NCBI GenBank assembly: GCA_049518535.1
Contig: JBEKRS010000019.1
Coordinates: 12,033-76,032, forward strand
From: Terracidiphilus sp.
Lineage (GTDB): Bacteria; Acidobacteriota; Terriglobia; Terriglobales; Acidobacteriaceae
DNA length: 64,000 nucleotides
Direction: 5' to 3'
The notes under the pieces are model-generated. The model did no database searches, was not told the origin of the DNA, and worked only from the letters and a program-made list of their open reading frames with translations. This document shows positions 60,421 to 64,000 of this stretch, piece by piece. Within the stretch, counting starts at the first letter, position 1; each line of letters begins with the position of its first letter. The position numbers and the translations under genes were made by a program.

Positions 60421-62019
60421 ATGATCAGTGTAAGCAATGTAACCATGCGCTACGGCTCGAAGGTGCTCTTCGAAGATGTGAGCGTGAGCTTTGTACCCGG
60501 CCGTCGCTACGGTCTCACCGGCCCCAACGGCTCCGGCAAGTCTACCTTTATGAAGATCCTCACCGGCGAGCTGGATGCGCAGAAAGGCACGGTCGTCCGC
60601 CCGCGCAAGATGGGCGTTCTGCGTCAGGACCAATTTGCCTTCGATGCCTATCGCGTCATCGACACCGTCATCATGGGCAACAAGCCGCTCTGGGCGGCTC
60701 TCGAAGAGCGCGACCGCATCTATGAGAAGCCGGAGTTATCTGACGCCGACGGCATGCGTCTCGGTGAGCTCGAAGGCGTCATCGGCGACGAGGACGGCTA
60801 TACCGCTGAATCCGACGCCGCCATCCTTCTCGACGGTCTTGATATTCCAGAAGATATCCACGAGCGAAAGATGGGCGAAATTCAGGGCGGACAAAAGATC
60901 CGCGTCCTTCTCGCGCAAGCTCTCTTCGGCAAGCCCCAGGCCCTGATGCTCGACGAGCCCACTAACTATCTCGATCTCGAATCCATCCACTGGCTGCAGG
61001 ACTTCCTCAATAACTACGACGGCACGCTGATCGCCATCTCCCACGACCGGCACTTCCTCAACTCGGTCACCACCCACACCGCCGACATCGACTACCAAAC
61101 CATCATCACTTATACCGGCGGCTATGACGAAATGGTGATGGCCAAAACGCAAATTCGTTCCACGCTTGAATCGCAAAACGCCCAGCGCGAAAAGAAAATT
61201 GCGCAGCTCAATGACTTCATCGCCCGCTTCGCCGCCGGAACCCGTTCCTCGCAAGTCACCAGCCGCCGCAAAGAGGTCGAGCGCCTGCAAACCAACGATC
61301 TCGCCCGCTCCAACATTGCCCGCCCATACATTCGGTTCGATCAGATCCGCCCCAGCGGCAAGCATGTCCTTGAGTTCAAACACATCACCAAAATCTACGG
61401 CGAGCAAACGGTTATCGACGGCTTCAGCGCCAACCTCATCCGCGGCGAAAGAATCTGTCTCATGGGCCGCAACGGCGCAGGCAAAACCACTCTGCTCAAG
61501 AGCCTTCTGAATAACTATCCCGGCCTCGCCGACAAAGATTTTACCCTCGACTCAGGCACCGTCTTCTGGGGCCACGAAGCGCAAATCGGCTACTTCCCGC
61601 AAGACGTTGGCGCGACCATTGAACACGGTCTCAGCGTAGCCGAGTGGCTCCATCGCTGGAACCCCGCTGCCCACGTCGAAGAGATTCGCGGCATCTTAGG
61701 TCAGATGTTATTCAGCGGTGAAGAAGGCGAGAAGCAAACCAAAGCTCTAAGTGGCGGCGAGCAAGCAAGGCTAGCTTTTTGTAAGTTAATCCTGACCAAG
61801 CCCAACATACTGATCTTCGACGAGCCCACTAACCATTTGGACTTAGAAGCTATCAACGCTTTGAACATAGCTCTCCAACGCTACGAAGGCACGGTCTTGT
61901 TAGTAACTCACGACCACGACTTAATAGACGAAGTAGCCACAAGGTTATGGGTCTTCAAAGAAGAAGGCATAGAAGACTTCCAAGGCCCCTACGCCGAGTG
62001 GAAAGGTAAACACAACTAA
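60421..62019 (+). CDS. ABC-F family ATPase (YbiT-like)
   Basis: Two Walker A motifs (GPNGSGKST, GRNGAGKTT), LDEPTN twice, no TM segments. Confidence 0.92.
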   Translation: MISVSNVTMRYGSKVLFEDVSVSFVPGRRYGLTGPNGSGKSTFMKILTGELDAQKGTVVRPRKMGVLRQDQFAFDAYRVIDTVIMGNKPLWAALEERDRIYEKPELSDADGMRLGELEGVIGDEDGYTAESDAAILLDGLDIPEDIHERKMGEIQGGQKIRVLLAQALFGKPQALMLDEPTNYLDLESIHWLQDFLNNYDGTLIAISHDRHFLNSVTTHTADIDYQTIITYTGGYDEMVMAKTQIRSTLESQNAQREKKIAQLNDFIARFAAGTRSSQVTSRRKEVERLQTNDLARSNIARPYIRFDQIRPSGKHVLEFKHITKIYGEQTVIDGFSANLIRGERICLMGRNGAGKTTLLKSLLNNYPGLADKDFTLDSGTVFWGHEAQIGYFPQDVGATIEHGLSVAEWLHRWNPAAHVEEIRGILGQMLFSGEEGEKQTKALSGGEQARLAFCKLILTKPNILIFDEPTNHLDLEAINALNIALQRYEGTVLLVTHDHDLIDEVATRLWVFKEEGIEDFQGPYAEWKGKHN

Positions 62020-62211
62020 GCGCAGACCGCGATAGGGTCAGATTCCTGCCAACTCCCGATCAAGGATATCTCAAAATCGGAGAGGCGCGGAAGGAATTCA
62101 GAGAACAGCCACGCTTGGCTCCCTCGATTGTGATAATATTCGATGCCAAGAAGGGCGTCAGAGGGATCCTGGCTTTGTGCTGCGAGGAAACCTCTATGGA
62201 AGTGTGAGAAA

Positions 62212-62715
62212 GTGTCATATCAGAACAAGACTTTCGTTTCATTCGACGGGGATACCGACATCCATTACTACCGCCTTATGACGGCCTGGAAACAGAACGA
62301 CAACCACAACTTCAACTTCTACAACGCACATGACCTCAATACCGCACGAGACTCAAGCGCTGAAGAGTCTATCAAAGCACAACTAGCTGAGCGTCTGAGA
62401 AACACTAAAGTATTCGTGCTCTTGGTGGGGCAAAGTACACGTTATCTCTATAAATTCGTTCTCTGGGAGATCGAACAGGCTCTTAAGAGAAATCTGCCTA
62501 TCGTTGTCGTGAATCTCAACGGAAAAAGATCTATGGACAACGAACGCTGTCCTTCGTTGCTGCACAATACCCTAGCGATCCACATAAGTTTCAACGCAGC
62601 CATAATGCAACGCGCTCTTGAGAGCTGGCCCGTATCAGACGCCTCCCTGAGAGCCCAAGGCAAGGGTGGACCCTACTACTATACGGACGATATTTATAGA
62701 GGGCTTGGCCTATGA
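62212..62715 (+). CDS. TIR-like domain protein (Thoeris ThsB / DUF1863-like)
   Basis: TFVSF, FNFYNAHD, LVGQST, WEIEQA with catalytic-type Glu, PIVVVNL. Confidence 0.8.
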   Translation: MSYQNKTFVSFDGDTDIHYYRLMTAWKQNDNHNFNFYNAHDLNTARDSSAEESIKAQLAERLRNTKVFVLLVGQSTRYLYKFVLWEIEQALKRNLPIVVVNLNGKRSMDNERCPSLLHNTLAIHISFNAAIMQRALESWPVSDASLRAQGKGGPYYYTDDIYRGLGL

Positions 62716-63632
62716 GCGCCGCAAGAGTTAGTTATTACCTTAGGACACTCGGCCGAAATGTTCTTTCTCTTAGGGGAGCCTCTGCGCTGCTGAGTTCACT
62801 CGGTGTCCTTTATACAGTTCTGAAATGAGCGGACTACTTTAAAATCGCGAAACAAGAAGATGTTCAAGCCTACTGGTGGGTGTTCTTCGGCGCGGGGTTG
62901 GTGGGAGCGATCTGGGTATGTCGACCAAAGCTCGCAGTCGAATGCAAACTGAAGGATCGCGACACTGCTATCGAGATCGCAATAGGTAACTTGTTTTCTT
63001 TTGAAGGTGCAATCATTGTGGGCACGAACACAACCTTCGACACCCAAATATCCCAGGAGCAAATCAGCGAAACAAGCATCCAGGGGCAGTTTACAAGAAG
63101 ATTCTACGGTGACCATACGTCGCTAGACCGCGAGTTGGGCCTCGAACTCAACGATATTGAGTTCGAAAAACTCGAAGAAAAGCGAGTAGGAAACACGAAA
63201 CGCTATCCTATTGGCACTGCTGTGAGGCTCAAGCCAAAGGATAGAACGGGATACTTTCTGGCAATCTGCCACGTCAACAAGAATGGGGTTGCATCGGGCA
63301 CGTTTGATGACTTGAAAGAGGCGCTTGGGCAACTTTGGATTTTTATCGGGAACCGAGGACAGAAGGAGCCGTTGGTAATGCCAGTCCTCGGCTCTGGCTT
63401 CACACGGCTTAAGCAATCTAGGCAAGTTATCACTCAAGAGATCATTAAGTCATTTGTCGCTGCATGCTCCGAGAAGACATTTTGTGACAAGTTGACAATC
63501 GTCCTCGACGAGAAAGACGTGCTCAAAAACAAGGTTGATCTCGGAGCGCTTGGGGAATATCTCAAGCACTTTTGCACCTATACTGAATTCACTGCCAAAA
63601 CAACCGAAAGAATAGGAACTGCTGTACCCTAA
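62712..63632 (+). pseudogene. Two-TM plus Macro-domain protein (Thoeris type II ThsA-like), interrupted by in-frame TGA at 62826-62828
   Basis: ATG 62712 overlaps the TIR stop (ATGA) and is in frame with track ORF 62880-63632; Macro-like IGNLF..GTNTTFDT, YPIGT, PVLGSG. Confidence 0.72.
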
Positions 63633-63645
63633 TGCCGTGCCGAGT

Positions 63646-63797
63646 TCCCCATCCTTGACGCAGTTTCATCGCGGCAAGGGTGGGAGACCAATCACCCCAG
63701 CCGTCAATTCTCCCGTAGGGAGAATACGAAAATAGCCCAGGGTAAAGCGCAGCGCAACCCTGGGTAAGCATCCCAAAAATCCCAAGCATCCCGTAGG
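63646..63797. repeat. Cluster of REP-like palindromes
   Basis: CCCATCCTTG/CAAGGGTGGG stem 63648-63684; CCCAGGGT/ACCCTGGG stem 63736-63764; direct repeats CCCGTAGG and AAGCATCCC. Confidence 0.6.
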
Positions 63798-63878
63798 ACC
63801 GCTGCGAAAACCAACTTCAACACCCGATGCCCCAACCCCGAATCTTCTGACCTGGAAACCCTGCATCAAACCCACATC

Positions 63879-64000
63879 TTAGGCGTTCCACTGCAACAAA
63901 AGGTCCGGCTCCTGCTCTTCGTTGCTTTCGCCGTTCGTGCGGTCGATCACGGAAAACCCATGCTTCTCGTAGAACCGACGCGCGAGTTCGTTTCGTTCGA
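63879..64000 (-). CDS. GNAT acetyltransferase, C-terminal part (runs off window edge)
   Basis: Reverse strand reads RNELARRFYEKHGF...EEQEPDLLLQWNA*. Confidence 0.8.
   Translation of the reverse strand, partial: ERNELARRFYEKHGFSVIDRTNGESNEEQEPDLLLQWNA

Follow-up and report, generated by a model that had tools for sequence, protein, structure and literature searches.

A probable nonsense pseudogene of the type II Thoeris effector gene thsA beside an intact thsB in Terracidiphilus sp.

Background

The effector of type II Thoeris combines a Macro domain with two membrane helices (bioRxiv 10.1101/2024.01.03.573942; PMC11204291), and the signal in the system of Bacillus amyloliquefaciens Y2 is His-ADPR (bioRxiv 10.1101/2024.01.03.573942). 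The first ThsA helix is amphipathic and the second hydrophobic. In the model for TM-Macro ThsA proteins (PMC11204291), the Macro domain binds an ADPR derivative made by ThsB, and the open-ended oligomers that form bring the two-helix membrane domains together in clusters. ThsA Macro domains retain ligand binding and self-association when isolated (PMC11204291). Deletion of the first or of both ThsA helices abolished phage defence in another type II system, and the importance of the WxxxE motif in type II ThsB has been shown (bioRxiv 10.64898/2026.01.22.701046).

The locus described here is a thsB-thsA pair in a 64,000-nucleotide stretch of DNA from a Terracidiphilus sp., the whole of which is referred to as the window. 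The parts of this pair are all on the forward (+) strand. Its membership of type II Thoeris is clear by descent, while the present copy is broken, the frame of the effector gene being interrupted by a TGA codon.

The TIR partner, thsB

The gene for the TIR-like sensor of the system, thsB, occupies 62212..62715, with 167 codons from GTG 62212 and a TGA stop at 62713-62715, and it is intact. Its product matches Pfam ThsB_TIR (PF08937, 6.9e-21) and the PADLOC ThsB1 model (PDLC00429, 7.7e-76), such that a ThsB TIR-like gene adjoins thsA as in described type II systems. The list of open reading frames begins this gene at ATG 62143, giving a 190-aa form that is probably too long. The homologues are 167 aa in length, the PADLOC match begins at residue 25 of the 190-aa form, and Shine-Dalgarno pairing is -4.0 at GTG 62212 versus +0.3 at ATG 62143, all of which argue that the GTG is the real start. 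ThsB is 79-86% identical to its nearest 167-aa relatives, and the LWEIEQAL sequence, which contains the WxxxE motif, does not vary between the window and three homologues. The alignment and the retained WEIEQ motif therefore agree with the earlier sequence-only reading of this DNA, in which the TIR partner looked intact.

At the homologue loci L015, L017, and L019, ThsB shows this 79-86% identity while ThsA is only 69-72% identical to the same-contig partners. In this clade the effector ThsA diverges faster than the sensor ThsB.

The thsA reading frame

In the standard code, the thsA frame opens with ATG 62712-62714 and runs for 38 codons, MSAARVSYYLRTLGRNVLSLRGASALLSSLGVLYTVLK, to a TGA at 62826-62828 (codon 39). 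It then continues as ADYFKIAKQEDVQAYWWVFFGAG... through 267 open codons in the same frame to TAA 63630-63632, and would encode 306 aa with the TGA read through. The 5' fragment (62712..62828) has the native ATG and encodes an N-terminal helix along with almost the whole of membrane helix 1. Membrane helix 2, the loop before it, and the Macro domain are encoded by the 3' remainder (62829..63632). An ATG at 62712, a TGA at 62826-62828, and an open frame of about 306 codons to 63632 were what the sequence-only reading had reported, and re-reading of the sequence bears this out. It had also remarked that the open reading frame track hides the split, which is indeed the case, the sole thsA entry in the list being a 250-aa piece from GTG 62880. 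The 38-aa 5' piece is annotated as a gene in its own right in contigs L001, L020, and L021.

The start of thsA shares the sequence ATGA (62712-62715) with the TGA stop of thsB, a 4-base overlap that is also present at the homologue loci L015, L017, and L019. There is a Shine-Dalgarno-like AGAGGG (62698..62703) 8 nt 5' of the ATG, for which the duplex with the anti-Shine-Dalgarno sequence is -6.3 kcal/mol, placing it in roughly the top 5% of window positions, and this stretch is conserved in homologue DNA. The pairing at GTG 62880 is only -2.1, which is at background level, and ATG 62712 is therefore taken to be the native start. A scan of 61900-64000 for promoters and terminators found numbers of sites that are not above those in shuffled sequence.

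Candidate restart codons lie at 62880..62903. These are GTG 62880, which is the start of the gene callers' 250-aa form, TTG 62898, and GTG 62901, which has moderate pairing (-5.6) and is where the 243-aa cluster member P0122 would begin, judging by its length. All three are inside helix 2. A restart at 62880 or 62901 keeps 7-13 hydrophobic residues of this helix, which would be too few for the product to span a membrane.

Domains and the position of the stop

The Pfam ThsA_Macro profile (PF20016) matches the read-through protein at 8.6e-49 over residues 87-265 (62970..63506), covering profile positions 1-182 of 183, and this region is the predicted signal-binding and oligomerising module. The PADLOC model of the Macro-type ThsA (PDLC00414) matches at 1.9e-64 over residues 17-287 and spans the stop. 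The ThsA Macro structures 8v6q, 9uuz, 8r66, and 8v6s are also matched, with E values of 3.5e-12 to 3.9e-7. A C-terminal Macro domain of the Thoeris type is thus present, on the evidence of the full PF20016 profile and of the solved ThsA Macro chains (E 3.5e-12), and the earlier description of a "ThsA-like effector" was right for the Macro type of this protein.

The first 38 codons match homologues, with 30 of the 38 residues identical in homologue P0003, and the PADLOC ThsA alignment passes through the stop, so that the in-frame match across the TGA is not due to chance.

The AlphaFold model of the read-through ThsA, made with 36 sequences, has a mean pLDDT of 82 and a pTM of 0.76, with helices predicted at residues 3-17, 20-42, 48-52, and 55-69, followed by the Macro fold. 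The hydrophobic cores are at residues 22-38 and 55-71. Taken together, these place the stop at residue 39, just past the hydrophobic core of helix 1 and in the last turn of that helix (20-42), 16 codons before membrane helix 2 (residues 55-69, 62874-62918). The TGA had been described as lying between the two transmembrane helices. It does precede helix 2, but according to the model it is within the end of helix 1 rather than in the middle of the loop. Both N-terminal helices are encoded, yet in table 11 they are not on one polypeptide with the Macro domain, the TGA separating helix 1 from the rest.

Homologues and the ancestral codon

Most of the best 120 homologues listed are 305-310 aa long and cover 94-100% of the read-through query, and among the matches listed the only one at 100% is the 250-aa piece itself. 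Both helices are present in all of the 35 homologues aligned, and in this alignment the N-terminal region is conserved through the position of the stop, where P0003 reads ...LLSSLGVLYTVLKCADYF.... The sequence-only reading had allowed that homologues might naturally start near 62880 and lack the first helix. This is not so, since nearly all of them are 305-310 aa and have helix 1. When 35 genome loci were checked by script for N-terminal breaks, an undisrupted N-terminal frame was found in 33, from species of many phyla, most of them with two clear hydrophobic segments. No stop at the site of codon 39 is present in the 120 listed proteins or the 35 genomes.

Opposite the TGA, Cys is found in 11 of the 13 homologues that align most closely and Phe in the other two, and homologues further away have Ile, Leu, Met, or Phe. 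At the DNA level, the three nearest loci have TGC, TGT, and TGT at this codon. The presence of Cys codons in the nearest homologues makes a third-position change from TGY to TGA the simplest history, and the ancestral codon was probably of this kind. The example of TGG to TGA that had been offered is probably wrong, given the aligned Cys.

The remaining two of the 35 genomes have thsA copies that are damaged in other ways. In an uncultured Cytophagia MAG (CAZIKB010000110.1; L057:1440-1600) the break in the thsA-Macro gene falls between helices 1 and 2, and helix 1 (…ILHSMGIMWVVVEIGSFFFE) is read in a different frame from helix 2 and the Macro domain. The shift of frame is at a run of eight Ts (GGGTCATTTTTTTTCGAATGA) and is either a homopolymer sequencing error or a real frameshift. 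In a Bryobacterales MAG (JAKZVK010000382.1; L043:1348-2196) the ThsA Macro match begins only at query residue 75; the upstream frame is unrelated and non-hydrophobic and the whole two-helix membrane region is missing, which may be an assembly error. The finding of two such copies among 35 genomes suggests that N-terminal breakage of thsA is not rare, and together with the copy in the window they hint that the membrane part is a common breaking place of such effectors.

The nearest intact homologue pair, in which ThsA is 71% identical, is on forest soil contig JX_forest_Scaff10833574 and in SRR28401724 (L015/L016:1-8900). This pair sits in a defence island with an IS66-family transposase, a DruA-like gene, an AAA_13/AAA_21 ATPase, and a type I restriction HsdM methylase.

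Genomic setting and age of the break

The Thoeris pair is directly 3' of an ABC-F gene, which has its stop at about 62019. G+C is 0.45-0.51 across the pair (~61750 to 63700) and 0.56-0.63 in the flanks. In five genomes of the same genus (L074-L078) the similarity ends exactly at the stop of the ABC-F gene, and the site after this gene is thus variable. The GNAT gene and the antiporter that follow in the window are both missing from the 5 kb past ABC-F in these five genomes, and neither an empty site nor a right-hand boundary emerged from the comparison.

PF20016 is rare, being found in 4 of 401 genomes of the phylum, in a search with the Macro model that does not extend to the N-terminus. No orthologue with the same stop is present among 60 relatives, which hold only distant ThsA paralogues of 26-28% identity. 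There is no backup effector in the window's own genome (94% complete), where the ThsA_Macro match is single and there is no second copy.

No second stop or frameshift is present in the 267 remaining codons of thsA. A maximum-likelihood tree built from 24 ThsA proteins gives the window's copy a terminal branch of 0.22, with 0.25 and 0.25 for the two nearest relatives. That the branch is no longer than those of its sisters and that there is no second lesion both support a recent break. The recent nonsense inactivation put forward in the sequence-only reading gains support in this way, and from the full-length homologues and the reality of the stop. An undamaged remainder and an unaccelerated branch would also be expected were the gene still working or recoded.

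Identical copies in other samples

Six further contigs, from six other samples (JGI metagenomes 3300040759, 3300041417, and 3300041415; ENA ERZ27249988; SRA SRR13201553 and SRR7027735), match the window with 100% identity along 1.7-5.1 kb of DNA, including the TGA. The sequences compared are consensus contigs, in which a minority intact allele could go unseen, and the seven assemblies come from different pipelines (JGI, MEGAHIT k141, Logan, the NCBI genome). The change to TGA is a substitution and is not in a homopolymer. All members of the cluster to which the truncated form belongs are 243-250 aa long, and among 5.8 billion clusters there is no intact protein of more than 72% identity. Since the seven copies do not differ, they amount to a single clone, and they say nothing about whether evolution has tolerated the stop or selected it.

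Consequences of the stop

The best explanation of these observations is that thsA in the window is most likely a genuine and recent nonsense pseudogene of a type II Thoeris effector, which would leave the operon defence-null and thsB as an orphan sensor. A Cys codon (TGC or TGT) at position 39 would have mutated at its third base to TGA. Ribosomes starting at the ATG 62712, with its Shine-Dalgarno-like sequence, would then stop after a 38-residue peptide that contains almost all of membrane helix 1. For the remainder, with helix 2 and the Macro domain, there is no strong separate start, and so it would be made poorly or without a membrane anchor. In a working type II system, infection leads ThsB to make a signal derived from ADP-ribose. 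This binds the Macro domain of ThsA and causes oligomerisation, the two-helix membrane domains cluster, and the cell is stopped. Where helix 1 is not joined to the Macro domain this final clustering step should fail, and it is on this account that the system is most likely defence-null with an orphan thsB. The loss of function is inferred by analogy with the published truncation of another ThsA, and may reflect an effector that is costly or toxic to its own cell, or simply drift.

Alternative explanations

An error of sequencing or assembly had been among the options of the sequence-only reading, and the same TGA in six contigs from six other samples effectively disposes of it. It might still be proposed that the TGA reflects an error in the consensus or the assembly, or that the site is polymorphic and an intact form common, since all of the copies may stem from a single widespread clone and rare variants are lost in assembly. 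This is very unlikely indeed, given that seven independent assemblies from different pipelines agree base for base, that a substitution outside a homopolymer is involved, and that the truncated cluster holds nothing but 243-250-aa members, the closest intact protein in 5.8 billion clusters being 72% identical. The alignment of a UGA with Cys is the classic signature of a selenoprotein, and selenocysteine was tested for this reason. There is no tRNA-Sec and no UCA anticodon among the 57 tRNAs found by ARAGORN, no match to the selA model, and for selB a best match of 192.6 bits that is below the cut-off of 242.25 and covers the GTPase part only, in each case in a genome that is 94% complete. As to a SECIS-type hairpin, the 81-nt segment that spans and follows the UGA is no more stably folded than shuffled sequence (z = +1.07; 172 of 200 shuffles are as good), and Rfam has nothing relevant at the UGA. 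The site, which is in a membrane helix, is also not a conserved one and may be occupied by Cys, Phe, Ile, Leu, or Met. Selenocysteine is accordingly rejected, to the extent that a genome at 94% completeness allows. An altered genetic code, in which the organism reads TGA as an amino acid, is rejected because TGA ends thsB at its conserved C-terminus, GLGL, four bases into thsA, and is the commonest stop of the long frames in this genome (TGA 1200, TAG 877, TAA 862). Recoding of either kind is scarcely credible.

The 57 tRNAs from ARAGORN include none for His or Ile, which fits a draft that is 94% complete and in 190 contigs. The incompleteness of the draft calls for caution over each statement of absence from the genome.

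Of what is left, low-level readthrough of the UGA ranks ahead of a function for the pieces, which ranks ahead of polymorphism or error. Leaky readthrough was also among the options of the sequence-only reading. UGA is the leakiest of the bacterial stops, and some full-length ThsA may therefore be made, perhaps by near-cognate decoding (e.g. by tRNA-Trp), with the system working at a reduced and less self-toxic dose. The 267 undamaged downstream codons and the unaccelerated branch would fit with this, but a recent break explains an intact remainder equally well. The next base is a G, and weaker termination contexts than this are known in E. coli; the fold z-score and Rfam give no structure or known signal after the UGA. 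Dose matters for an effector that acts by oligomerising (PMC11204291), yet for the same reason it would probably need more than the 0.1-1% of the normal dose that readthrough would give. Together with the absence of any homologue with a stop at this site (120 listed proteins, 35 genomes), this makes a working, leaky thsA unlikely. The pieces might instead be functional in themselves, a restart at GTG 62901 or 62880 giving a Macro protein with little or no anchor that soaks up the ThsB signal, or that forms a two-part effector with the 38-residue peptide. Gene callers list both pieces as genes, GTG 62901 has moderate Shine-Dalgarno-like pairing (-5.6), and Macro domains of ThsA in isolation are able to bind ligand and self-associate (PMC11204291). 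The pairing at GTG 62880 is at background level, though, restarts within helix 2 leave 7-13 hydrophobic residues, less than a membrane span, and neither a homologue that is split like this nor a family of separate 38-aa partners was seen in the 120 listed proteins and 35 genomes. As truncated ThsA also gave no defence (bioRxiv 10.64898/2026.01.22.701046), functional pieces are distinctly improbable. A more general proposal is that the UGA acts as a gate, with rare readthrough limiting a self-toxic effector or an anchorless Macro restart buffering the ThsB signal, in which case this would be a tuned or repurposed Thoeris rather than a pseudogene; nothing positive speaks for this, and the chance of it is slim. 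If true, a leaky UGA that limits the dose would offer a simple, new means of restraining a toxic immune effector.

Significance

Under the preferred reading, that of a recent nonsense pseudogene, the significance is mostly limited to annotation, the nonsense pseudogene of a known effector being an ordinary event for defence genes. The gene callers give a 243-250-aa "ThsA", and defence-system finders would count a complete type II Thoeris, when this is more likely to be a defence-null locus with an orphan TIR sensor.

Comparison with known systems

The pair in the window resembles the type II Thoeris systems of B. amyloliquefaciens Y2 and of E. coli CFT073 and PcThsA (PMC11204291) in being a gene pair, in gene order, and in the combination of ThsB_TIR with ThsA_Macro. 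It is also like them in having two N-terminal helices encoded before the Macro domain, in the WxxxE of ThsB, and in the match of the Macro domain to 8v6q and 8r66. It differs from them in that the effector frame is cut by a TGA at codon 39. Sequence identity to the studied type II proteins is low (Macro E 1e-12 to 1e-7), and, unlike those, the system in the window is known from sequence alone.

The CBASS effector Cap15 (cited in PMC11204291) is similar in that a nucleotide-binding domain is combined with a two-helix membrane domain, which clusters and disrupts the membrane on binding of ligand. The ligand-binding domain and the signal of Cap15 are different, so that this is an analogy of mechanism only and not membership of a family. 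The thsA-Macro copies of L057 and L043 share with that of the window an intact Macro domain and a broken N-terminal membrane part, while the lesions and the lineages differ.

A parallel to the break itself is offered by the engineered ThsA truncations (bioRxiv 10.64898/2026.01.22.701046), since the first membrane helix would likewise be lost after the stop at codon 39 and any restart. Those truncations are designed deletions in a different ThsA, made in E. coli, whereas in the window there is a natural nonsense codon and the helix 1 peptide would still be translated separately. The copy in the window may thus be seen as the natural equivalent of the laboratory finding that ThsA requires its helix 1.
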